DNA from: an uncultured delta proteobacterium | Lineage (GTDB): Bacteria > Desulfobacterota > RBG-13-43-22 | Length of the DNA stretch: 64,000 nucleotides | Assembly (NCBI GenBank): GCA_963743305.1 | Contig: CAVUPH010000020.1 | Coordinates: 64,001-128,000, forward strand | Direction: 5' to 3' | Shown: piece by piece, positions 18,909 through 36,780 of the stretch | Layout: every line of letters begins with the position of its first letter | Numbering within the stretch: position 1 is the first letter of the stretch | Translations under genes and position numbers: made by a program | Notes under the pieces: model-generated | The model's database searches: none | What the model was told of the DNA's origin: nothing | The model's input: the letters and a program-made list of their open reading frames with translations, nothing else

Positions 18909-21395
18909 TTATTCCGGTGTTAGACTTTTCGGGTTATTGGTCTTCCGGAAATCGTCATATTTCCAAGTCGGGCTCTGAAGCGGCAGGGTGTCCTTAAAAT
19001 AGTCTCCGGCCGGACGGCGGAAGGGTTCCAGGACCTGGCTGTTCAGTTCCGCCGTTTCTTCAAACAGGGACTTGGGCGTGGAAAATTCAATGATGTTATT
19101 GTCATCCGTATTGAGCGGGCCTTTCTGCGTCAGCACGGCAATTTCCCGGGGACCCATCACGAAACGACCCAGGAGGGTTTTCAATTCCGTAACCTCGATA
19201 CGTTTCAGGTCCTGGGCCACTTTGGGCCATTGCATTCGTTTTTCGATCTCCGCCGGAGAAAAAACGGGAGGGGTTTTGAAACCCACCAGGACCAGATCTT
19301 TGTCCTGAGGCTGGAAAACGTAGACGTGGGGAAAAACGGCGCGAAAGGTCCGCAAAACGGTTTTAAAGCTTTCCGGAGAAATTTTATACAACTGCAGCCA
19401 CTGGCAGAAAACGCCTTCCGGTTTAAGCTTGTCGAAGCCAAGCTGAAAGAATTCACGGGTGAAGACATTGGCGATACCGGCCATCCAGGGGTTGGAAGGT
19501 TCGGAAATGATCACGTCATAAAAATCAGGGGTTACTAAGAGGTAGTTGCGGGCATCAGCCACCCGCAAGACCATCCGCGGGTCTTCCAGGGGCCGGTAGT
19601 TGACGTGGTCGAAGAAATGGGACCCTTCGATAACCGCCTGTTCCAGTTCCACCAGGGTAATTTTTTTCGCGGGGAAGGTAGTCACGGATCCGATCGTCAC
19701 CCCGCTGCCCATGCCGACTACCAGGATTTCATCCAATTTGGGCGCCAGCAGCAGCGGAATGTGGCCCACCAGCACCTGAGTAGGCATGTCCCCCTTGGTC
19801 GAGGCCTCCACTTTGCCGTTGGACTTCATGTAAATGGTTCCGGTGTACTTGGACTTATGGACGCTGATGGTGCAGGTTTGCCCTTCTTTATAATATAAGA
19901 GGGGTTCGTTTTGGGGGGAATACATGGCCACGAGGTCGGACCGGGAGGTGTTTTCAAAATTATGGGCATAGATATAGACGCCGCTGGCCATCAGGGGCGC
20001 TTTCCATTCGGGTGGAAAGGCCATGATGGCGGCCGCGAAAAGAATGGTCAGCGAATAAGCTGCTCTTTTCAAATAGGGGCGCGGGGCCGGGGAGATCAAG
20101 AGGACGTATAGGCCGTAGAGCAGATTCAGACCGATGCCCAACAGGATGGTGTTGCGGATACCGATCAGCGGGATCAGGAAGAAGCCGCCGGCAAAGGACC
20201 CCAAAATGCAGCCGAGGGTATTGATAGTATAAATATTGCCCACTAGACGGCCCACCTGGTTGAGATGAGACATGCAGATCTTGATGGTCAGGGGGAAGAG
20301 GGCGCCCATTAAAAGGGTAGGGGCCAACATGATAAAAAAAGCCAGCAGGTACTTCCCGAGCAAAAGCAAATTGATGGACTGCCCGATGGTCTGGTAAAGC
20401 AATAAGTAGAGGTAGGGGAGCTCCTGAAAAAAAATCAGGCTCAGGAAGGCCAGGACCCCGATTCCGATTTGCATCAGGGCCCAGGTAAATCCCTGGTAAC
20501 GAAAGGTATCCACCCACCGGGAAAAAATCAGAGACCCGAAGGCGATGCCGACCAGGAAAGTGGTCAGCATGATGGTAAAACCGTAAACCGAAGAATCCAC
20601 CAGCAGAGACAGGGTCCGGCTCCAGGCCACTTCGTAGATCATGGAGATAAATCCGGATAGGGAGATCCCGATGACGATGGACCAGACCACCTTTTTGGGC
20701 AGTAGGCCCGAAGTGGCTTCCAGAAATTTCCCGGCGGGTTTTGGCCCCGGAGATTCCGCCACCATCGGGCGCTCAGGAAACCGGGGCAACAAGGCGAGGA
20801 TCAGCAGGGCGACCAGCAGGTTGATGCCTACGGCGATCCACAAGGTGTGTTGGACCCCCAGAGCGGGCAACAGGAAAAAACCGCTGAGGGCGGTGCCTAA
20901 CACGGCCCCGAAGGTGTTCAAGGCGTAAAGACGGCCGATGGTCACCCCCAGGGTGGTTTCTTCCCGGACGGCCCAGGTGCTCAGGATGGGCAAGGTGGCG
21001 CCCATGCAGGTGGTGGGAATGATCAGGACCACGGTAATCAGCAGGAATTGCAGGAGGGTGAAGCTGTAGAAATTCAAATTAAATTGCTGCCAGAGAAATT
21101 GGTATACCGGAATCAGTCTGCCGAAGATCCAGGGGATGATCAGGGCGTAAAGACCGATAACCCCTTCCAGTATCCCGTAATAAAGGAGGGGGCGTTTTTG
21201 ACGATCCATCATCCGGCCGAAAAAGTAGCTGCCCAGGGCCAGGCCGCCCATAAAGGCCGTCAAGACCGTGCTGATGGCCAGGGTAGTGGAGCCGAAGATG
21301 AGGATCAGCAGGCGCAGCCATAAGACTTCATACAGCAACCCGCTGAAACCGGAGAAAAAAAAGCACAATAGGACGATGGGACGGATCAAAGTCAT
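18909..21395 (-). CDS. Fused membrane (MFS-like) / spermidine synthase family protein
   Basis: SGLLYEVLW.R, MGATLP repeats, many TM helices; C-terminal VVGMGSGVT, VELE, DARNYL, DVIISEPSNPW; start taken at MTLIRP with AAGGAG RBS. Confidence 0.9.
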   Translation of the reverse strand: MTLIRPIVLLCFFFSGFSGLLYEVLWLRLLILIFGSTTLAISTVLTAFMGGLALGSYFFGRMMDRQKRPLLYYGILEGVIGLYALIIPWIFGRLIPVYQFLWQQFNLNFYSFTLLQFLLITVVLIIPTTCMGATLPILSTWAVREETTLGVTIGRLYALNTFGAVLGTALSGFFLLPALGVQHTLWIAVGINLLVALLILALLPRFPERPMVAESPGPKPAGKFLEATSGLLPKKVVWSIVIGISLSGFISMIYEVAWSRTLSLLVDSSVYGFTIMLTTFLVGIAFGSLIFSRWVDTFRYQGFTWALMQIGIGVLAFLSLIFFQELPYLYLLLYQTIGQSINLLLLGKYLLAFFIMLAPTLLMGALFPLTIKICMSHLNQVGRLVGNIYTINTLGCILGSFAGGFFLIPLIGIRNTILLGIGLNLLYGLYVLLISPAPRPYLKRAAYSLTILFAAAIMAFPPEWKAPLMASGVYIYAHNFENTSRSDLVAMYSPQNEPLLYYKEGQTCTISVHKSKYTGTIYMKSNGKVEASTKGDMPTQVLVGHIPLLLAPKLDEILVVGMGSGVTIGSVTTFPAKKITLVELEQAVIEGSHFFDHVNYRPLEDPRMVLRVADARNYLLVTPDFYDVIISEPSNPWMAGIANVFTREFFQLGFDKLKPEGVFCQWLQLYKISPESFKTVLRTFRAVFPHVYVFQPQDKDLVLVGFKTPPVFSPAEIEKRMQWPKVAQDLKRIEVTELKTLLGRFVMGPREIAVLTQKGPLNTDDNNIIEFSTPKSLFEETAELNSQVLEPFRRPAGDYFKDTLPLQSPTWKYDDFRKTNNPKSLTPE

Positions 21396-21431
21396 TCTCC
21401 TTTGGTTGTTTCGGAAAAAGTCACCCCGGCT

Positions 21432-21512
21432 GTCATTGCGAGCGAAGCGAAGCAATCCCCGCCATGGGAACTAGCCGATTATTGGGGATTGCTTCGCTTC
21501 GCTCGCAATGAC
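21432..21512. repeat. Repeat family B, copy 2
   Basis: Same inverted-repeat arms as 17548-17642 with a different spacer. Confidence 0.9.
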
Positions 21513-24209: not shown

Positions 24210-24404
24210 ATGAGAACGAATGTAGTCGTAGATGACGATCTGATGGAGTCGGCTCTCAAGGTATCCGGCCTCAAAACAAAAAAGGATGCCATAGAAGAGG
24301 GATTGAAACTGTTGGTGCAAGTTAAACGCCAGAAGGAAATTAAGCGTTTTCGAGGAAAACTCAAATGGTCTGGCAATCTCGACGAGATGAGGTTAGACAA
24401 ATGA
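24210..24404 (+). CDS. vapB: VapB-family antitoxin
   Basis: MRTNVVVDDDLM..AL..SGLKTKK..IEEGL...W.GNLDEMR; ATGA overlap with the PIN gene. Confidence 0.9.
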   Translation: MRTNVVVDDDLMESALKVSGLKTKKDAIEEGLKLLVQVKRQKEIKRFRGKLKWSGNLDEMRLDK

Positions 24405-24796
24405 TTCTCGTTGATTCGTCCGTCTGGATCGACTACTTTAACGGCAATAAAACATCTCAAACGGACTGGCTGGACTCTTCACTTGGAAATATACCCATCA
24501 TCATAAATGATCTTATTCTAACCGAAGTCCTTCAGGGATTTCAGAATGATAAAGACTTCAAGACAGCCAGGGACATTCTCTTAGGAATCCCATTTATGTC
24601 AATGGGAGGACAGGTATTAGCCATAGAGAGCGCTATGAACTATAGATTCCTGAGGAAGAAAGGTGTGACCGTGAGGAAGACGATAGACGTCATTATTGGA
24701 ACTTTCTGTATCCACCACCGGCTGACATTGTTGCATGACGACAGGGATTTTGATCCGATAGTTAAGTTCCTAGGTTTGGAGATAGTCGACACATAA
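24401..24796 (+). CDS. vapC: VapC-family PIN domain ribonuclease toxin
   Basis: MILVDSSVWID, TEVLQG, KTIDVIIG, LLHDDRDF acidic PIN residues. Confidence 0.92.
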   Translation: MILVDSSVWIDYFNGNKTSQTDWLDSSLGNIPIIINDLILTEVLQGFQNDKDFKTARDILLGIPFMSMGGQVLAIESAMNYRFLRKKGVTVRKTIDVIIGTFCIHHRLTLLHDDRDFDPIVKFLGLEIVDT

Positions 24797-27671: not shown

Positions 27672-28643
27672 CTAAAGATACCCGGCGGCAGCATATTGTT
27701 TGATCTTTTGCGGGATCACCGTTTCCCAGTAGTGATCGAAATTAAACCCCGAATAATCATGGCAAGGGGCGGGACCGGTATCCACCAACAGGCACTGGCA
27801 GTCATTTCCCTTTAGTAAGACAAAAATATTATTGGGACTGACCGAGGTTTTCACTTCCGGGTTTTTGTCGAAAAGGTCAATCAGCCGGTCAATGAAGGAC
27901 TGCACGCTTTCCCGTACCAATCGATAGGCCGAATTGCCTGGTCCACCCAGGGAATAATAGGTTTTGGCCAGGGACTCTCCGGCCAGACGCTCTTTGATCA
28001 TGAAGCTGCCGTAGGGATCGCTCAACAGGATGCGCGGTACGGGAACGCCCTGCCTTTCGAAAAAGTCCGTTACCTCGTATTCCTCTTTCAGATGATTCCG
28101 GCTATAGGGACGGGGTTTGGCAAGTTTTAAGACCGCTTGCGGGGCTTCCTGATAGTCGTAGACGATCCCGTTTTCCCCTTCCCCGATCCTGGGCAGCTTG
28201 ACGGTATAATGATTGCCGGCCAGGTTGATGGGGATGGATCCGGAGGGAAAGCCGCCCAGCCCCTGAATGACGTGGCTGGATTCGTTATCCAGATAAAGGA
28301 CCCGTAGATCTTCCGCCAGGTTGGCCACGTAATCCCGGGAACCGAACCCGATAAAAGTCTCCGACCGGTCCTCCCTCAAGAACATACCGTAATAACCGGC
28401 GGTCTGAAGGGCCAGGATCAAATCGCTGATTCGGGCATATTGGGGAGCGAAAAGGATTTCGAACAAGCCCACTTCCCTCCCGGAAAGAGAGCGAAAGCCG
28501 CAAACCCGGCACTCATCCACCTGGACATTGGGGATACGGACAATGGACCCTTCGATGGTGATGTCCTGAGGGGTTTGAACCGTTATTAAAAAACCTTCTT
28601 CACAACGGGGACATATTTCCGTTTGGGGTTTCGGTTCATCCAT
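27672..28643 (-). CDS. YgiT/MqsA-type Zn-finger fused to a kinase-like (pseudokinase) domain
   Basis: CPRC...CRVC; IGEGENGIVY, VLKLAK, KEE, VPVPRI, IKERLAGESL, TSVSPNNIFV, LVDTG; start overlaps the upstream stop by 8 nt. Confidence 0.75.
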   Translation of the reverse strand: MDEPKPQTEICPRCEEGFLITVQTPQDITIEGSIVRIPNVQVDECRVCGFRSLSGREVGLFEILFAPQYARISDLILALQTAGYYGMFLREDRSETFIGFGSRDYVANLAEDLRVLYLDNESSHVIQGLGGFPSGSIPINLAGNHYTVKLPRIGEGENGIVYDYQEAPQAVLKLAKPRPYSRNHLKEEYEVTDFFERQGVPVPRILLSDPYGSFMIKERLAGESLAKTYYSLGGPGNSAYRLVRESVQSFIDRLIDLFDKNPEVKTSVSPNNIFVLLKGNDCQCLLVDTGPAPCHDYSGFNFDHYWETVIPQKIKQYAAAGYL

Positions 28644-29865
28644 GGGCGGTTTCCCCGGAGGCGTTAGGATCATGATTCTCCAAAACCTTTTCATGCTTGA
28701 CGGTCAATTGGAAAAGCCGTTCGGCCAAAATAACCGAGATGTTTTTGATGAGCTTATAGGGGGCCGTGAGGTTGGCCTCCAAAAGCTCGTTGAACTTGTC
28801 CTGATCGATTTCGATCAATTTGCAGGGGGTGGCGGCCACGACGGTCATGGACCGGGGCACATGGAGCAGGAAGGCCATTTCCCCCAGGACCGATCCCCGT
28901 CCGATCCGCAGGTGCCAGGAACCCGGTTTGGAATAATGCCCCCGCCGGACCTCCACCTCCCCCTCCAAAATCAGGTAAAAATTTTCCCCGATGGCCCCTT
29001 CCCGGAGGATGATTTCCTCCGGTTCGAATTCAATGGTCTTGGCCGTTTTCAGGAGCAGGAATATTTCCGCCGGTTTCAGGTCATGGAAAATTTCAAATTC
29101 CTTAGCCTCGTCCCGTTCGGATTGGGTCACTTCCTGCGGCACCAGCCACTGCAGGTAACCGGTGCGCTGGTACTTGCGGATGCGGTCGGGCAGGACTTCA
29201 TTCCAGTACTTGTTGAAGGTATAGCCTTCGTAATTCTTTTTTAAGGTGGTCCCCGGATCGATCAGGACAAATTGAGTGGGATCTTTAAACTTCCCCCCTT
29301 CGCTCAAGACATAAATGTTATTGGGGCTAACGCTGACTTTGCAATCGGGCCGCTTTTTGAATAATTCCAAAAGACGGTTCAAGAATTTTTCCAGGCCTTC
29401 CAGGATCAATTGCTGGCTTTTAACCGATAATTCGTTGAAGCGCAGATAAAGGCTGGTAATGGATTCCCCCTCTACAAATTCTTTGATACAAAAACGGCCT
29501 AAGGGATCCAAATGAAATATACGAGGGACGTACACTTGTTCGGAAAGGAAAAAATCCGTGGTCATGGCCTCTTCCAGGAGGCGCTCGCGACAAACCGGCT
29601 GCTGTTTGGCCACCTTGAGGCAGAGGGACCCCCGGGCCTCCGGGAGGGTTAGTGAATGGGAACGCAGCGGATAGACGATGCCGCGATCCCCCTCCCCGAG
29701 AGGCGGCAGGTTGATTCCCAGGGTGACCCCGCCGTAGACTTGATCGCTTTCCTTGAATCCGGCGGTGGCAGCCTGCTGCAAGGCCTCAAAAAAAACCACG
29801 GCCTGATCCTCCAATTCCGGGGCTTCAAACGCTTGAAGGGGTTTCTTTGCCGATGTCATAGTCAC
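28636..29865 (-). CDS. Kinase-like (pseudokinase) domain fused to a cyclic-nucleotide-binding domain
   Basis: LGEGDRGIVY, CLKVAK, LEE, IKEFVEGESI, VSVSPNNIYV, LIDPG; C-terminal IILREG...FYLILEGEVEV...LGEMAFL...PRSMTVVA. Confidence 0.8.
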   Translation of the reverse strand: MTMTSAKKPLQAFEAPELEDQAVVFFEALQQAATAGFKESDQVYGGVTLGINLPPLGEGDRGIVYPLRSHSLTLPEARGSLCLKVAKQQPVCRERLLEEAMTTDFFLSEQVYVPRIFHLDPLGRFCIKEFVEGESITSLYLRFNELSVKSQQLILEGLEKFLNRLLELFKKRPDCKVSVSPNNIYVLSEGGKFKDPTQFVLIDPGTTLKKNYEGYTFNKYWNEVLPDRIRKYQRTGYLQWLVPQEVTQSERDEAKEFEIFHDLKPAEIFLLLKTAKTIEFEPEEIILREGAIGENFYLILEGEVEVRRGHYSKPGSWHLRIGRGSVLGEMAFLLHVPRSMTVVAATPCKLIEIDQDKFNELLEANLTAPYKLIKNISVILAERLFQLTVKHEKVLENHDPNASGETAHG

Positions 29866-31100
29866 CTCTCTGCGGAAAGATTTTTGCTTCGTTCCTCTTT
29901 TTCGGCCCTCCAGCCCAAAAAGAAAACCACGGATCCCAAAAGGGGAAAAATACCCAGCCAGCCGAAAAGGGTGCGGGCCGATACCTGAAAGGTGGTTACC
30001 AATAGATAGACCGCCCCCATGGCCGCCAAACCAAAAATCCGGCTGCCGAAACTGGTGGTGGATTTGGCCCTTCCCTGAATGTGGGCCTCGGAGTAGCGGT
30101 TCACGATGGCGTCAATCCCCACGGCTTCGGAGGCCTGGCCGGCCCCCACCAGGGCCCCCACCAGGCAGGCCAGGAAGACGTCATTCACCAGATTAAAGCC
30201 GAAGAAAGCCATCCCAATTACGATCAGGGAAACTCCGGTAAGAAAAAAAGTGGAACGGTAGGCGAAGAAAAAAGGGATCACCAGGGCGGTGACCACCACC
30301 TTGCCTGCGGATTGGGCGGATTCAAAATAGCCGTAGGACGACAGCCCTTTGGCCAGGTGGGCCAGGTAAACCACCGATAGTACGGTAAAGGAGCCGCGAC
30401 CCACCGCTACCAGGGAACGGCCGATTAATAAAAGCCGCAGGGGTTTCTTGCCCCAGGTATAGCGGAGCCCCTCTTTTTGGCTGGCCCAATAGGATTTTTT
30501 ACGGACCCTCTGGTAATCAATGATGGATTCTCCGGTCAGTTGTAGGCGGGTGACCAGCAGGAAGGAAAGAAAGAATAGAGGTGGTCCCCAAAGAACTGCC
30601 ACTTTGAGCCCCAGCCAACCGGACACCAGACTGGCCAGGGCGTAGCCCGTGATATTGCTGAAATGGTTGGCGGCGTCCACCTGGGATAAGACTTTGGTCC
30701 CTTCCTTAACCGGAAAATTGACTTTAACCACTTTGTCGGCCGCCGGTTTAAAGAAAATAAAGACAAAATCTCCTAAAAAAGAAAGGACCAGATAAACCGG
30801 GTAGGGATAGCCCCAAAGCACGGCCGCCACCAGCATCAGGCTCAGGATCGTCCGCAGCAGCTCGGCGGCCATCAGGGAGGTGCGAATATGCAGTTTGTCG
30901 ATAAAGGGGCCGGATATGGCGTTGATCAGTATTTCGCAGACATACCGAAACACCAGCACCAAGCCGGCGATCATGGGGTCATGGCTCTTAGAGGCGACTA
31001 AGAGGACCGAGAGGATCCGCAAAAAGCCGTCTCCGATCCGGGTAAAAACCCGGCTGGAGATCAGCAAGAAGAAATCTTTTTGGATAGTGGAGGGTTCCAT
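29862..31100 (-). CDS. MFS transporter
   Basis: About 12 hydrophobic segments; FFLLISSRVFTRIGD, SGPFIDK, KEGLRY, IQGRA pattern of DHA3-like exporters; stop overlaps the next start. Confidence 0.85.
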   Translation of the reverse strand: MEPSTIQKDFFLLISSRVFTRIGDGFLRILSVLLVASKSHDPMIAGLVLVFRYVCEILINAISGPFIDKLHIRTSLMAAELLRTILSLMLVAAVLWGYPYPVYLVLSFLGDFVFIFFKPAADKVVKVNFPVKEGTKVLSQVDAANHFSNITGYALASLVSGWLGLKVAVLWGPPLFFLSFLLVTRLQLTGESIIDYQRVRKKSYWASQKEGLRYTWGKKPLRLLLIGRSLVAVGRGSFTVLSVVYLAHLAKGLSSYGYFESAQSAGKVVVTALVIPFFFAYRSTFFLTGVSLIVIGMAFFGFNLVNDVFLACLVGALVGAGQASEAVGIDAIVNRYSEAHIQGRAKSTTSFGSRIFGLAAMGAVYLLVTTFQVSARTLFGWLGIFPLLGSVVFFLGWRAEKEERSKNLSAER

Positions 31101-31223: not shown

Positions 31224-32855
31224 ATGCTCTATAAACTGCAAATTACCCCATCCGTCGGAAAGCGCTGGATCTATACCATAGAAAAACCGTTGGCCAGAAT
31301 CGGCCGGACCCCTCACTGCGAAGTGGTCATCAACGACCCGCTGGTTTCACGAGAACACTGTCTGCTGCAATTGATGCCCGAGGGACTGTTTTTGGAGGAT
31401 TTGCACAGCGCCAACGGCACCCTGGTCAATGAACAGCGGATTACCCGGGTCTTGCTGCATCCCGGAGATAAGATACGTTTGGGGCTGTCGGAATTCGTCC
31501 TGGAACAGATCCCTGAAAGAGAAGCGGTCCTTCCGGCTCCGCCGGCTCAGACCCCGGATCCGGGGCTCAGGCAGAGCGATCCAGGGGCAGCCCAGCAGCC
31601 GCGAGAAGCTGAACCGGAGAAGGCGGTAAAACCTTGGCCGGTGAAATCGCCGGAGGCGAAGCCGAAGAAACCTTCCTCGGAGAAATCGCCGGAGGCCAAG
31701 CCGAAGACCGAAGGGGAACCCCCGGTACCCCCCATTCCTCTGGTTTCCCCCAACCAAGAACCACCTTCCCTACTGGTCATTCATCCCGGATGTCCGAAAA
31801 TTGAGAAGCAACTCGAACCGCTGGTCGCTTCCGGAGTGGTGATCCGGCAGGCCACCGAACGGGATCAGGTCCGGGCGGCCCTGGAGAACCCGCTGCCCGA
31901 TTGCATCCTGCTCTGCCATCAGATCCCGGAGCCTCTGGAAATTTATCAGGAGCTGCGTTCCCATTCACAAAACATGCCCATTGTATTGTTACTCCATGGG
32001 GAGCCTTGGACCGAGGCCCAGACCCTCATTCGTTCCGGGGTGGATGAAATCCTGCATCATCAGGATTTCACGGAATTTCAGGTGCGGATTCGCAACATGA
32101 TTGAAATGAACCGGTTGCGAAAAGAAGCCATCCTGGTGACCGCCCAGGTGGAAAAGCGGGTCAGTGAGGACGTTTCCGAGGCTGAACGCATCACCCGACT
32201 GAAGCGGTACCTTTCTCCCCAGTTGGTGGCGGCGCTGCTGTCCGGGGATGAATCGCACGTTCTGAAGCCTACCCGCCAGGAGGTCACCATCGTCTTTTCC
32301 GATCTGCGGAACTATACCCATTTCTCGGAGACTTCGGAACCGGAAGAGATTATCGCCATGCTGAGTGATTTTCATGCCCTCTACGGCGAAATAATTTTTA
32401 AATATGACGGGACCCTGGAACGGTTTGCCGGGGATGGGGTCATGGTCTTTTTTGGTGCGCCGGTCCCTTTCAAGGATCATGCCCGCCGGGCGGTGGCCAT
32501 GGCCGTGGCCGCTCAGGAGCGTTTGGTCGACCTGCGGACCAAATGGAATAAATTAGGCTATACCCTGGATGTTTCCTTCGGGATTTCCACCGGCTACGTT
32601 TATGTGGGCAATATCGGTTTCGAAGGACGAATGGACTACGCCGCCATTGGTAAGACCACCAACCTGGCCGCCCGGTTATGCGCCGCGGCCAAGGGAGGTC
32701 AGATCCTGATCAGCCGCAAAACCCTTTTTCAGGTGGAAGATCTGGCGGAAGTGGAAGAAATCGGGGCACTGGAGGTGAAGGGCTTCGGCGAACCGGTCAT
32801 GGCCTACAACGTAATCGGCTTGAAAACCCCCTTTATCCCCGTTCCGATGAATTGA
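31224..32855 (+). CDS. FHA domain - Pro-rich linker - pseudo-receiver - class III nucleotidyl cyclase
   Basis: FHA IGR...VSREHC...DLHSANGT; receiver-like PDCILLC...PIVLL...GVDEIL; cyclase FSDLRNYT, ERFAGDG, GNIG, NLAARL. Confidence 0.9.
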   Translation: MLYKLQITPSVGKRWIYTIEKPLARIGRTPHCEVVINDPLVSREHCLLQLMPEGLFLEDLHSANGTLVNEQRITRVLLHPGDKIRLGLSEFVLEQIPEREAVLPAPPAQTPDPGLRQSDPGAAQQPREAEPEKAVKPWPVKSPEAKPKKPSSEKSPEAKPKTEGEPPVPPIPLVSPNQEPPSLLVIHPGCPKIEKQLEPLVASGVVIRQATERDQVRAALENPLPDCILLCHQIPEPLEIYQELRSHSQNMPIVLLLHGEPWTEAQTLIRSGVDEILHHQDFTEFQVRIRNMIEMNRLRKEAILVTAQVEKRVSEDVSEAERITRLKRYLSPQLVAALLSGDESHVLKPTRQEVTIVFSDLRNYTHFSETSEPEEIIAMLSDFHALYGEIIFKYDGTLERFAGDGVMVFFGAPVPFKDHARRAVAMAVAAQERLVDLRTKWNKLGYTLDVSFGISTGYVYVGNIGFEGRMDYAAIGKTTNLAARLCAAAKGGQILISRKTLFQVEDLAEVEEIGALEVKGFGEPVMAYNVIGLKTPFIPVPMN

Positions 32856-33040
32856 GTAAAATCGGACTTCAATGACGGAGTCTCCAACCGATCCTTCCGT
32901 CGGCCAGGCGCTTCCTGGAATGCCCATTTTAATTCTACCTGTTGCCTTCTCCCGGCCGGCGACTCTGTGGCGAGAGGTCGCCTCCGCTCAGAACATCCAA
33001 GGAGAAACCCTTTTTCTCACCGTTTACCATAAAAAAGGCC

Positions 33041-35012
33041 ATGTCCAACATTGATCAATTAAGAAAACCGCTCCTCCATTTGCGCGAACTTCTCCCCCGA
33101 GTGGTCGATTTGATCGAGACCGCTGACCCGGATTCGAGCGCACAGTGGAGAAACCTTGATGCCAGGCTGCTTCCGCTGATGGATAAACGTTTGCCCCTCA
33201 TGGTGGCCGTCTGCGGGGGCGCCAACTCAGGGAAGTCCACTTTGTTCAATTCCCTGTTGAAGATCCGTCTCTCACCGGCCCGAGGTGACGCCGGAAGCAC
33301 CCGCCGTGTTCTGGCGGCCATACACCCCGCCGTACTGCGCCGGAAGAACTTTATGGAAAACCTCTTTGAGCCTTTTGGTCTCATTCCCCGGCTCCTTGAG
33401 GATTCAACGGCCCTGCTGGAGACCGGTCCGCCGCTGGTGGTGTCCCACCCGGATGTGCCGCAGGATCAGGTCTGGATGGACACCCCCGACTTTGATACCG
33501 GGTCCGACGACCGTTATCTGAACCGTCCCATCGCCCGGGAGGTGCTGGAGGCCTGTAACGTCCTGATCTATATTGTCACCAATACGACCTACAACAATCT
33601 GGAGAACACCCGCTTTATGCGGCAGATTCTAACCGAGACCGGAATGCGGCGCTTAATCCTGGTCTATAGTTGTTCCCGCACGATCGAGGACCAGCAGGCC
33701 AGAGAACATTTGAATACTACGGCCTCCAATTTATATGGGCCGGCCCAAGAGGAGTATTTGATCGGCACCTACCGAACCGACACCAGCGACGAGGTGGCCG
33801 CCGGTCAGGCCTTCATGAATCCGCGACCGATCTTTTCCGGAGAACCGGATTTAATGGAATTGTTACGAAGACTGGACCCGCGGGCCATCAGGGAACGACA
33901 GATTCTTTCTACCCTGGAGGCCTTCGTCGGTTATGTGCGGCAGCTCATGAAGACCTCCAAGGTCGTGCGGGAGGAGATCGACCTGTATGTCGGTACGCTG
34001 CAACTGGCCCTCGGGCGGGCGGTTCAACAATCCCTGGTTTCTATCCCGGTCAAGAAGATCCTCCAAAGCATGAATGAGCTCTGGCTGCAAACCAGTCCGC
34101 CGCACCTCAAGTTCTTCCGCGGCGTGGGCAGCGTCCTCGGTAAACCTGCCAGGATGCTTCTATCGCTACTGAACCTGGCCCAAGGGGATGAGGCCCCCCA
34201 AAAAGGTTCTTTCACCCAACCGATCGATCCGCTGGAGGAAATCAAATCCAACCTCCTGGGCGCGGCCTCGGAACTGCGTGACCACCTCCTGGCCGAGGAA
34301 CTAATGGCCGAGATCGTGGCCAAAGAACCGGAAGGGGCCCGCCTGATCGCCCTGGTCGATCATATTCGCCAACACCGGGGATCCAAGGAAATCCAGTTAC
34401 CCTTTCGGCAAATGGCCCCCGGCAGAGGAACCGTAACCCTGCACGTGGTTGCTCCCGACGGGTACCGCCGTCGTCCGGAAAGCATTGGAGGGCCGTCCCT
34501 GGTCGGCTACCTCCGAGCGGATTGTTTCCACGGCCCGAGACCTTTTGGATATTTCCGAAGATGCCGTTTTGACCGCAGAGCTGACCAGCTTGATTAACGA
34601 ATTCCGTCTGCAAATGAATTTTCTTCAAAGAACCCGTGAATCATTTTTTGCTTCGTTGAATGTCTTACCGGCTACCCTCGGTATCGCCTATATTCTGACC
34701 ACCGGTGACCCGGTGGGCGGGAGCGGCCTTTACGCCAAACTTCACGGTATCTTCGGTATGCACGATTTATGGGCCCTGGTTTCCATCCCCGCTTCGGCCG
34801 GTCTGGATGAAACCGGACGGAAACAGCTTTCCGACATGCTGGAGCCGGTGGTCAGACGGTGGCTCGAAAATCGGGCCATTATCGTTCGGGAAGTCTTCGA
34901 GGAAACCATTACCGGCGGCGTGATCGAGGAATTAGTAAAAATGAGAGGGGTCCTCGATCAATTAATTGAAGAAATTGAAAAAGAACTGGACTTATTGCGA
35001 GGTTATCTCTGA
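33041..35012 (+). CDS. Dynamin-like/Era-like GTPase 1 (frameshift near 34456)
   Basis: G1 GGANSGKST, G2 GSTR, G3 DTPDFD; long helical C-terminus continues in ORF 34449-35012. Confidence 0.75.
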
Positions 35013-36780
35013 TGATCCAGGACGACTTCTATCCGCTTAAGGCCCGCGGGCGGTTATCGGCCGCCAGAGAATCCATTAGACAAATCCAGACCACGGCTGA
35101 AACCGCCGGCCACTGGATTCCCGGCCGGAGCCTATCGTCGGAATGCCGCGCGGCCGTCGATTTGCTGGAAAAAATGGAGGAACGGTTGGTCCACAAATTG
35201 GTGGTCACCCTGGTCGGTCCCAGCGGGGCCGGAAAATCGACCCTCTTGAACGCCCTGGCCGGTGAAGACCACCTTTCCCCTGTCGGAATCGACCGGCCAA
35301 CCACCAGAGGTCTCGTCGTTTTCTGCCGATCCCGGGCTGATGCCGAAATCCTGCTTCAGGGCCTGGATCCGGCCGCGGTCGAGGTGGAGCCCCGTCCGCT
35401 CGCGGCTGGATTGGAACAGGTCATCTTGGTGGACACCCCGGACATGGACAGCATGGAAAGTCGGCCCTTTCATCCGCTTCTGGAGAAAACCATCGCCCTG
35501 ACCGACGTGCTGGTCTGTGTCTTGAATGCCGAAAATCCCAAACGCCGGGATACCATCGTTTTTCTTAAACGGTTCGTTGAGCTGCTTTCCCGGTCTCTCG
35601 CTTGTACGTGGTTTTGAACCGCTGCGACCGCCTGCCGGAAGAAGAATTAAAGACCGTTATCCTCCCGGACCTCCAGACCCATCTGGAGACCTCCTGGCGA
35701 AGAAAGGTCGACCACGTATTTTGTCTCAGTGCCCGCGACCATTTGAAAGCGCCGGGCTGGCCGGAAGACGAAAAACCCAGACATCGGTTCGATCAATACC
35801 CGCAACTCCATAATCAGATCTTCGGGACCCTCAACCAGGAAGGGCGCTTGGTGGACGTTCGGCTGGAAAGGGCGGACCATCTGGTTGAATGGATACAGCA
35901 AACGGTCCGGCACACCCTGGCGGGAGTGCCGGAAAGACTGACGGAAATCAGAAAGGACATCCTGGATCTGGAACAAAAGGCGACCAGGACCGCAACGGAA
36001 ACCCTGAAGGAAAGCGGGGGGGAGATGTTGAGCGGGATACAAGCCCTGTTTTATCAAAAACTGGCCGATCGCTGGTGGGGTCCGGTAGGATGGCTGGTGG
36101 CCCTCTGGGCCCGATTTCTTATGGCCGGGGCCGGTGTTTTGGCCACGTTGCGTTTTGGAAACCCGTTGCTGCAGCTCTGGGGTTTGATTTCCTCCTTGGT
36201 CCGTTACCGGAAGTCACGTCAGGCGGTTGAAGAAGCCACAGCGGGAGGTGAGATGGCTTCCGTCTTGCTCAAATATCGTTTTACCATCCAGCAGGTTTGG
36301 CCGGATTTGGCCGGAAGACTGATTGCCCTTGGATTTAATCAGGGGGTGCGCGAGGCCAAAGCGGTCTTGCAGGACGAGGAAGACCTCCGTCTGCGCCTGG
36401 CTTCTTCCTGGAAAGGCGCTTTGGAAGAGGCCCTGAACCGCCGGGTAGGAAACTTATCCGGGTTTATTCTGCAGTTGATCTTCAATCTGCCGACCTTGGC
36501 GGTCATGGGGCTCTTTGCTTATCAAAGTGTAAAAAGTTTTCTCTGGCAGCAGAACCTGGTTCCCGAATATTTTCTTCACGCCACCGTCGCCATCCTTATA
36601 GTGAGTCTTCTTTCTTTCTTCCTCTTTCAAGTCCTGGTCCGTTTGGTCGGGGGCGGGCATCTGCTCAAGTCGGCCACCGAGCGGTTGGTCGGCTTGGTCG
36701 AGACGGCCGGCAGCGCCCGCCAGAACTATTCCATCCTCCAAGAGATTGATGCCGTGCTTCGTTTGGGAGAGGTAAAATAG
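35012..36780 (+). CDS. Dynamin-like/Era-like GTPase 2 with C-terminal TM segments (frameshift near 35586-35601)
   Basis: G1 GPSGAGKST, RPTT, DTPDMD; G4-like VLNRCD in the following ORF 35602-36780; start coupled to the GTPase 1 stop (TGATG). Confidence 0.75.

Follow-up and report, generated by a model that had tools for sequence, protein, structure and literature searches.

Two adjacent genes, here called A and B, encode minimal kinase-like domains in a 64,000-nucleotide stretch of DNA from an uncultured delta proteobacterium of the Desulfobacterota (assembly GCA_963743305.1, contig CAVUPH010000020.1, positions 64,001 to 128,000; hereafter the window, with coordinates counted from its first letter). 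We class their domain, recognizable by an S-x-S-P-N-N catalytic loop, as a new family with the kinase-like fold and, in kind, as an atypical pseudokinase. Judging from the aligned sequences, the hallmark of the family is the replacement of the general-base aspartate by an invariant serine, while the ATP- and Mg-binding residues remain intact. By the predicted models it belongs to the size class of Rio, Bud32, NleH and APH, with neither an activation loop nor a substrate-binding C-lobe. We favour, with moderate confidence, the reading that A and B form an obligately paired duplicate within this new minimal family and would serve as an ATP-binding switch gated by a cyclic nucleotide monophosphate (cNMP), be it a pseudokinase or a slow ATPase. 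No description of the family was found in the literature; the supplements of both bacterial pseudokinase papers, which fell outside the coverage, could list related sequences. The term 'cyclic nucleotide' is absent from the available texts of both papers (10.1101/2025.01.12.632604; PMC12599244). Among the matches listed, the names given to the kinase-like part by its sources are 'hypothetical', or refer only to a cyclic-nucleotide-binding (CNB) domain, a zinc finger, APH or Bud32.

Both genes lie on the minus strand. Open reading frame (ORF) A occupies 28636..29865 and encodes 409 amino acids (aa), arranged as an N-terminal helix, the minimal kinase-like domain and a C-terminal cNMP-binding domain. 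Its GTG start shares the sequence GTGA with the stop codon of the MFS transporter gene, and an ATG two codons later, at 29859, could be the true start, yielding 407 aa. The longest frame of ORF B runs from 27672 to 28694 (340 aa), and its true start is probably M18 at coordinate 28643, because the resulting 323 aa is the length of most of the 120 listed B homologues. B thus delimited (27672..28643) comprises a YgiT/MqsA-type zinc ribbon, a helical linker and the minimal kinase-like domain, and its ATG is overlapped by 8 nt by the stop of A.

The kinase-like domain of A (29140..29760, minus strand, residues ~36-242) was delimited by invariant columns and by profile alignment to Hanks kinases using hhalign, and that of B (27675..28247, minus strand) by BLASTP to A, Foldseek and VIA-align; the two share 40% identity over 188 aa (BLASTP, E 1e-41). 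In A, the landmarks are the Gly-loop G57-G62, K84, K87, E99, the catalytic loop at residues 176-183, D203, Y212 and Y232. The catalytic-loop motif S178-V-S180-P-N-N183 of A (29317..29334, minus strand) and its counterpart in B (27828..27845, minus strand) are both translated as SVSPNN. An earlier note on this DNA, made from the letters alone, had pointed to the same signatures, and each string it quoted is present: GEGDRG, LKVAK, KVSVSPNNI and IDPG in A, and GEGENG, LKLAK, KTSVSPNNI and VDTG in B. The C-terminal tail that it described, F..YW..V.P..I..Y...GYL, likewise occurs in both proteins; B terminates at the GYL, while A runs on into the cNMP-binding domain. The first serine of SVSPNN is encoded by AGC in A and by TCG in B, which are codons of different families, and the motif is therefore seen as maintained at the protein level. 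Since it is also family-wide, its sharing is ascribed neither to chance nor to gene conversion.

The assignment of the serine to the aspartate position comes from profile alignment. Searched against the PDB, the family profile aligned with nothing beyond the N-lobes of PAK kinases (E 7e-4); there E99 coincided with the alphaC Glu and K84 lay one residue or less from the VAVK Lys, with the catalytic loop outside the printed alignments. Because these alignments stopped before the catalytic loop, the family profile was aligned locally, using hhalign, with 22 Hanks kinase domains from the window's genome and its relatives. This alignment (Prob 96.9%, E 1.3e-10) covers 139 columns and stops ~12 residues past DFG. 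In A numbering, S178 occupies the column of the HRD Asp, S180 that of the Lys of D-x-K-x-x-N, P181 that of the Pro, N183 that of the catalytic-loop Asn and D203 that of the DFG Asp, and the Gly-loop of the family coincides with that of the Hanks kinases. The earlier placement of a serine at the HRD-Asp position, offered then as an inference, thereby gains column-by-column support.

Conservation was assessed on homologue sets obtained by word-index searches (163 A-type and 187 B-type proteins, 120 of each listed), with all retrieved domains aligned to the family hidden Markov model (HMM), giving 280 domains with a residue at the S178 column. That residue is serine in 121/121 A-type, 118/118 B-type and 39/41 other domains, and Asp occurs in 0/280; two further B-type proteins end before the column and were left out of the 118. 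The two non-Ser cases in the 'other' set are a garbled frameshifted fragment (Glu) and a 113-aa fragment (Ala). In these HMM-aligned sets S180, P181, N182, N183, D203, K84, K87, E99, G57 and G59 are also invariant or nearly so, the sole deviations at K84, E99, N183 and D203, in domains that cover these columns, being single cases of E99D, N183H, N183S and D203E, all in the 'other' set. Furthermore, an alignment of 61 sequences spanning A-type proteins, B-type proteins and distant relatives (25-30% identical) has 16 invariant columns: G57, G59, V64, K84, K87, E99, G123, G133, S178, S180, P181, N182, N183, D203, Y212 and Y232. E99 and D203 aside, no carboxylate in this alignment is invariant family-wide. 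The paralogues differ in the loop after DFG, where B has an invariant His-Asp directly before Y212 (118/118; H295 and D296 in the 323-aa numbering), and where in A the first of these positions is always Lys (121/121) and the second is Asn, Ser or Asp; A also carries Thr-Thr after the DFG Gly (112/121 and 105/121). Because the serine is invariant in both paralogues and in relatives only 28-32% identical, as are the ATP/Mg ligands, the alignments support selection on the Asp-to-Ser change. The earlier note had argued for selection from the identical replacement in the two genes, and the outcome that it named as fatal, a motif unconserved among homologues, did not materialize.

Structural comparison places both domains within the kinase fold. 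AlphaFold2 models built with family alignments (pLDDT 89.1 for A and 83.8 for B) contain an N-terminal helix (residues 16-34 in A, 111-130 in B), a five-stranded N-lobe with alphaC, then alphaD, alphaE and the catalytic loop; two short strands lead on to the DFG position, beyond which only one long helix remains. An activation loop and an alphaF-alphaI lobe are absent from both models, and B ends 35 residues past the DFG Asp. On these models the domains of A and B are minimal kinase folds. When the full A model was searched with Foldseek, only CNB matches were returned, leaving the kinase-like part uninformed, and hence the B model was used for the fold. Its top matches in the PDB were NleH2/NleH1, APH(2'')-IVa, Bud32 and Rio2 (E 3.5e-6 to 3e-5, prob 1.00), the best being NleH2 (4o96, E 3.5e-6), with 4lrk and 4lrj also found. 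In addition, VIA-align was used to compare the B model (residues ~117-319, with 146-186 residues aligned) against 48,161 representative chains. APH(2''), YabT, Bud32, Rio1, Rio2 and NleH1 reached Z scores of 10-11.5, with individual values of 11.5 for APH(2'')-IVa, 10.6-10.7 for Rio1, Rio2 and Bud32, 10.1 for NleH1, 9.7 for OspG and 9.1 for HopBF1; the archaeal RNA kinase Ark1 scored 9-10. The top Z scores are effectively tied. By sequence, the A domain had no significant match in the PDB (SAM synthase, E 0.25; 8yv4, a putative Ser/Thr kinase, E 0.38; Bud32, E 0.65). Foldseek and VIA-align together support the kinase folds that the earlier note had recognized. Neither SelO nor SidJ, both of which it had named, is among the fold or family matches listed.

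Profile libraries assign the domain to no established family. B matches the APH model of Pfam (PF01636) with E 1.4e-4 and 22.1 bits, below the cut-off of 23.2 and in the N-lobe only, and A matches it with E 0.25. A Pfam scan of 25 family members at E<=1 gave only weak matches, to APH in 8, to ABC1 in 5 and to Pkinase, Kdo and YrbL in 1 each; the PF00069 match (1/25) had an E of 0.22, and RIO1 (PF01163) matched 0/25 at this threshold. Because only weak or sub-threshold matches were obtained, no Pfam or NCBIfam model is considered to cover the kinase-like domain. Membership of RIO was rejected as a candidate: at E<=0.01, PF01163 matched 9/14 control genomes (8 above cut-off) and nothing in the genome of the window. 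Set against family definitions, the domain has the bilobal fold and the ATP/Mg motifs of the PKL superfamily without its catalytic-loop Asp. It shows neither the profile match, the activation loop, the APE motif nor the alphaF-alphaI C-lobe of Hanks kinases (PF00069), and relative to APH (PF01636) it scores below the gathering cut-off and has Ser for the Asp of HxDxxxxN. It does fit the sequence definition of a pseudokinase, with the HRD Asp changed to Ser and the beta3 Lys and DFG Asp retained. The nearest clusters in the ESM Atlas are unnamed Bacillota proteins of 176-181 aa, auto-labelled APH, protein kinase or RIO1, and are taken as leads only.

Comparison with known systems sharpens what is distinctive about the pair. 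The domains resemble Rio1/Rio2 and Bud32/PRPK in their minimal fold without activation loop or substrate-binding lobe (VIA-align Z 10.6-10.7; Foldseek E ~2e-5). A helix also precedes the N-lobe in both models and may correspond to the N-terminal helix of RIO; the VIA-align alignments to Rio1 and Rio2 begin at residues 92-97 of the B model. Where eukaryotic protein kinases (ePKs) have their catalytic-loop Lys, Rio and Bud32 have a small residue with a hydroxyl group, the counterpart of S180, but they retain the catalytic Asp where the new family has Ser. Their partners are ribosome or KEOPS components, whereas A and B are associated with a cNMP-binding domain, a zinc ribbon and FHA neighbours. 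NleH1/NleH2, OspG and HopBF1, the smallest known kinase folds, are a second point of likeness, with NleH at the top of the Foldseek list of B. These effectors have kinase activity and the canonical catalytic Asp. They are only 11-18% identical to B in the fold alignments and, unlike A and B, have neither a cNMP-binding or zinc-ribbon fusion nor a paired paralogue. APH (PF01636) provides the best VIA-align Z and a weak Pfam match to B, but its C-terminal substrate-binding helices are absent in B and the Asp of its HxDxxxxN is Ser in the family.

Regulatory pseudokinases and cNMP-dependent kinases offer further parallels. STRADalpha, JAK2 JH2 and HER3 bind nucleotide and control a partner protein although they have no HRD Asp, and the JH2 domains of JAK2 and TYK2 are among the Foldseek matches of B. 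In PKA holoenzyme and PKG a CNB domain is coupled to a kinase fold, as in A; however, A has the reversed order, with the kinase-like domain N-terminal, a minimal fold and no catalytic Asp, and the system includes an obligatory second paralogue without a CNB domain. The available text of PMC12599244 describes how the pseudokinase domain of MviN recruits the FHA protein FhaA once PknB has phosphorylated MviN, a recruitment that parallels the FHA neighbours of A and B. STRADalpha, JH2, HER3 and MviN are nevertheless full-size Hanks/ePK domains, in contrast to the minimal fold of A and B. Finally, the available texts of a bacterial serine/threonine kinase (STK) atlas (10.1101/2025.01.12.632604) and of a 2025 review (PMC12599244) describe seven pseudokinase families, defined as PF00069 homologues, that all substitute the VAIK Lys, a residue that the S-x-S-P-N-N family keeps.

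The two proteins differ in their accessory domains. The cNMP-binding domain of A (28771..29034, minus strand, residues 278-365) is the sole Pfam match in A, with PF00027 at E 2.7e-19 and 69.4 bits against a cut-off of 27.5. In the Foldseek search of the full A model it matched the CNB domains of HCN, PKA-R and MlotiK1 (E ~1e-9) as well as those of PKG, and its phosphate-binding cassette reads GEMAF...PRSMT, which from the general CNB motif we take to be intact. PF00027 was found in all 120 A homologues checked among the matches listed (~400 aa). At the N-terminus of B, the YgiT/MqsA-type zinc-ribbon segment CPRC...CRVC (28497..28613, minus strand) is matched by TIGR03831 (NCBIfam, E 3.3e-4) and TIGR03830 at residues 28-66 of the 340-aa ORF; its cysteines C11, C14, C45 and C48 are invariant in 52 aligned B-type sequences.

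The family is compact, since a search with the A domain matched only 33 of 1.84 billion cluster representatives at E<=1e-3. This kinase-like fold occurs only twice in the window's genome. Among 301 sampled genomes of the phylum, 4 possess the family, all in one taxonomic family and each with exactly two adjacent copies. Of the 9 genome and 55 metagenome loci compared, 52 include over 300 nt of sequence ahead of B, and all of these (52/52) have A immediately upstream of it in the same orientation; the remaining 12 are too short. The adjacency of A and B is obligate. Among the matches listed, homologues carry the source names Thermodesulfobacteriota, Syntrophobacteraceae, Acidobacteriota/Thermoanaerobaculia and Riflebacteria. 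A distant branch comes from the predatory Oligoflexales and Bacteriovoracaceae of the Bdellovibrionota (e.g. P0254, P0255, P0259 and P0269), all annotated hypothetical. Several of these proteins hold two tandem copies of the domain, each with an S-x-[SAN]-P-N-N loop, and several have hydrophobic N-termini that look signal-peptide-like by eye. In a maximum-likelihood tree of 36 domains, from which four near-duplicate proteins (six domain rows) were left out, A and B together with one long-branch sequence are split from all tandem halves by a 100/99 branch, and the N-terminal and C-terminal tandem halves group separately. Since both halves lie across this branch from A and B, the Bdellovibrionota duplication is considered independent of that of A and B. 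The two-copy state thus arose at least twice, and we infer from this selection for a two-domain unit. The two proteins may heterodimerize; a prediction of the full-length A+B complex gave an interaction score (ipSAE) of 0.00 in two runs without controls and is evidence neither for nor against binding.

The surrounding genes point to cNMP and FHA partners. Directly upstream of A lies the MFS transporter gene (29862..31100, minus strand; PF07690, E 6.9e-16), and divergent from it, on the plus strand at 31224..32855, is a gene for a protein with an FHA domain (PF00498, E 8.8e-20), a receiver-like domain (weak PF00072) and a class III nucleotide cyclase domain (PF00211, E 9.8e-22). The last of these scores comparably with the Pycsar cyclase models of PADLOC (E 2.7e-21, against 9.8e-22 for Guanylate_cyc of Pfam). 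This FHA-cyclase is the likely source of the cNMP sensed by A. The arrangement of cyclase and MFS-A-B is retained in 8/9 genome loci, the ninth being incomplete, and the MFS gene stands upstream of A in 8/9 genome loci and in 12/23 metagenome loci with room for it. A local FHA HMM detects an FHA-domain gene at 8/9 genome and 25/55 metagenome loci, including 6/10 of the metagenome loci with full flanks on both sides. Directly after B, many Acidobacteriota-like loci carry a gene for a ~1000-aa protein with FHA, cNMP-binding, sigma54-type AAA+, lid and Fer4_5 domains, found by tblastn in 20 loci. Its architecture, in which Fer4_5 is membrane polyferredoxin-like, is unusual, and no DNA-binding domain was detected by Pfam in the three proteins analysed (L031:7968-10985, L056:8010-11129 and L033:5821-8946). 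The constant unit is therefore A-B, with FHA-plus-cNMP partners frequent and the MFS gene lineage-dependent. Housekeeping neighbours (an Nfo-like endonuclease and a heptosyltransferase-family protein) occur in the same order in related genomes, and the window's genome has 4 canonical Pkinase genes, whose products could supply phospho-Thr.

Several other features were recorded in and around the locus. In two related loci (L007:3273-6017 and L024:3129-5789), the cyclase and MFS genes are separated by additional coding sequence for an FHA domain. After the FHA-cyclase in the window, two dynamin-like or P-loop GTPase genes occupy 32942-36780 on the plus strand, with weak Dynamin_N and MMR_HSR1 matches; the first is apparently split into overlapping ORFs (32942-34597 and 34449-35012), and the same break occurs in the relative L001. 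Farther away, an 848-aa ORF (18909-21455, minus strand) joins an MFS_1 transporter region to a spermine/spermidine-synthase-like domain, and at 24210-24796 (plus strand) a 64-aa ORF overlaps a 143-aa ORF in a manner that, by eye, resembles a VapB/VapC (PIN) toxin-antitoxin pair. Contigs from 3 metatranscriptome libraries (2 studies) match the window at 85-99% likeness, with all shares <=0.14, and one of 1090 nt covers 28126-29215 including the A/B junction. These contigs come mostly from relatives and may reflect DNA carry-over, and are not counted as evidence of expression; nor does a contig bridging A and B establish a single transcript.

In the mechanism that we favour, both domains would bind ATP-Mg, as the retained ligands suggest, and the nucleotide would drive a conformational switch. 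The domains would thus work as pseudokinases or as slow ATPases of the Rio/Bud32 kind, in contrast to conventional kinases that modify a substrate. The neighbouring FHA-cyclase would make the cNMP, the CNB domain of A would bind it and thereby gate the pair, and B would supply the zinc-ribbon interaction module. The output would pass to FHA-domain partners and, in many lineages, also to the MFS transporter. The cNMP gating and the absence of ordinary phosphotransfer are proposals. A precedent for the ATPase option is provided by Rio proteins, which in the available text of PMC5815136 are ATPases acting via an ADP/phospho-Asp intermediate at the metal-binding Asp. MviN, with its phosphorylation-dependent recruitment of FhaA (PMC12599244), is a second precedent.

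Several points weigh against this mechanism. The MFS gene is missing upstream of A in 11/23 metagenome loci with room for it, and an FHA gene is missing in 4/10 metagenome loci with full flanks (L029, L030, L046 and L057). Strict invariance of the whole active site, shared by the paralogues and their distant relatives, is seen more typically in enzymes than in scaffolds. The signal-peptide-like N-termini of the relatives from predatory bacteria suggest exported, enzymatically active effectors like NleH, OspG and HopBF1. Moreover, recurrent neighbours with the phospho-Thr-binding FHA domain would also fit an active Ser/Thr kinase, and the invariant post-DFG His-Asp of B could, on its conservation, be a relocated base, which is the other outcome that the earlier note had named as refuting its reading.

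The same observations bear on the alternative that one or both proteins are genuine phosphotransferases, which modify Ser/Thr on themselves or on a partner and so make FHA ligands, with A as a cNMP-sensing regulatory paralogue. The base would then be relocated (the His-Asp of B is the candidate), substrate-assisted, or dispensable in a slow, base-independent mechanism. Every ATP/Mg ligand is invariant, FHA-domain genes recurrently adjoin the pair, relatives in predatory bacteria appear exported, and B has an invariant His-Asp-Tyr where A has Lys-Asn/Ser-Tyr. The fold neighbours NleH, OspG, HopBF1 and Ark1 are active minimal kinases, and kinases mutated at the catalytic Asp, as well as HER3 and JAK2-JH2, retain weak activity, which also counts in its favour. 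However, the His-Asp is unconserved in A and in most distant relatives, unlike the serine, and because it is so restricted while the serine is conserved, a family-wide relocated base is not evident. No invariant carboxylate other than E99 and D203 exists family-wide to take over the role, and the domain, by the end of the hhalign alignment and by the models, has neither an activation loop nor a peptide-binding C-lobe. We regard phosphotransfer of this kind as unlikely, though the likeliest of the alternatives.

A bolder proposal, and a doubtful one, is that the S-x-S-P-N-N family is an active cNMP-controlled enzyme class, which uses the Ser-based loop together with Lys87, Tyr212 and Tyr232 for something other than ordinary hydroxyl phosphorylation and needs two copies of the domain. 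It would catalyse nucleotidyl transfer, phosphorylate an anionic acceptor, or run an ATPase cycle through a covalent phospho-enzyme. If this were true, the two-copy requirement would explain why the domain was duplicated independently, giving paired genes in Thermodesulfobacteriota and Acidobacteriota and tandem fusions, in apparently exported proteins, in the predatory Bdellovibrionota.

Other chemistry can also be considered without these further commitments, in the form of AMPylation or glutamylation, which the earlier note had raised with SelO and SidJ as analogues, phosphoryl transfer to an anionic acceptor for which a general base is unnecessary, or a covalent phospho-enzyme cycle via Ser178 or Asp203. 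The Ser that replaces Asp is accompanied by another invariant Ser and a pair of Asn residues inside an otherwise intact and strongly constrained active site, and K87, Y212 and Y232 are family-specific and invariant. The phospho-Asp cycle of Rio, as described in the available text of PMC5815136, shows that a phospho-enzyme route is possible in a kinase fold. On the other hand, similarity to SelO or SidJ is missing from the matches listed, the neighbouring genes indicate no small-molecule pathway, and the idea is purely inferential; it is considered improbable.

A Pycsar-like anti-phage module, in which an infection-triggered cyclase would activate CNB-bearing A with B as the effector, is very improbable. 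In PADLOC, the cyclase is matched by PycC models (best E 2.7e-21), as is the CNB domain of A by models of Pycsar effectors (E 2.8e-9). The distribution is patchy (4/301 sampled phylum genomes), and copies 57-75% identical occur in proteins labelled Acidobacteriota, Thermoanaerobaculia and Riflebacteria. Yet the PADLOC matches are limited to the generic cyclase and CNB domains, with scores like those of Pfam, and the models match neither B nor any kinase-like domain; A has no TIR or transmembrane effector domain, the neighbours are housekeeping genes in conserved order, and the cyclase bears FHA and receiver-like sensor domains. Equally hard to credit is the view that A and B are fully dead, nucleotide-independent scaffolds, which is in line with the missing HRD Asp and the pseudokinase sequence definition (PMC12599244, available text), but which conflicts with the fact that the two paralogues and relatives 28-32% identical share an invariant Gly-loop, beta3 Lys, alphaC Glu, Asn and DFG Asp, as such ATP/Mg residues are normally lost in dead scaffolds, and all seven bacterial STK pseudokinase families described in the accessible part of 10.1101/2025.01.12.632604 substitute the VAIK Lys.

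Altogether, new chemistry and new modes of allosteric signalling have come to light time and again among pseudokinases and atypical kinases, and those of bacteria are experimentally largely unexplored. The S-x-S-P-N-N family, in which the catalytic base alone is lost, an invariant Ser stands in its place and the ATP/Mg site is whole, is unlike the bacterial STK pseudokinase families catalogued so far. Its strict pairing takes the form of a conserved two-paralogue unit or, in another phylum, of a tandem fusion. With a CNB-fused copy and with FHA and cyclase neighbours, it represents a rare bacterial candidate for coupling cNMP signalling to signalling by a kinase fold, and the A/B system is small, soluble and readily testable as a switch versus a new enzyme.

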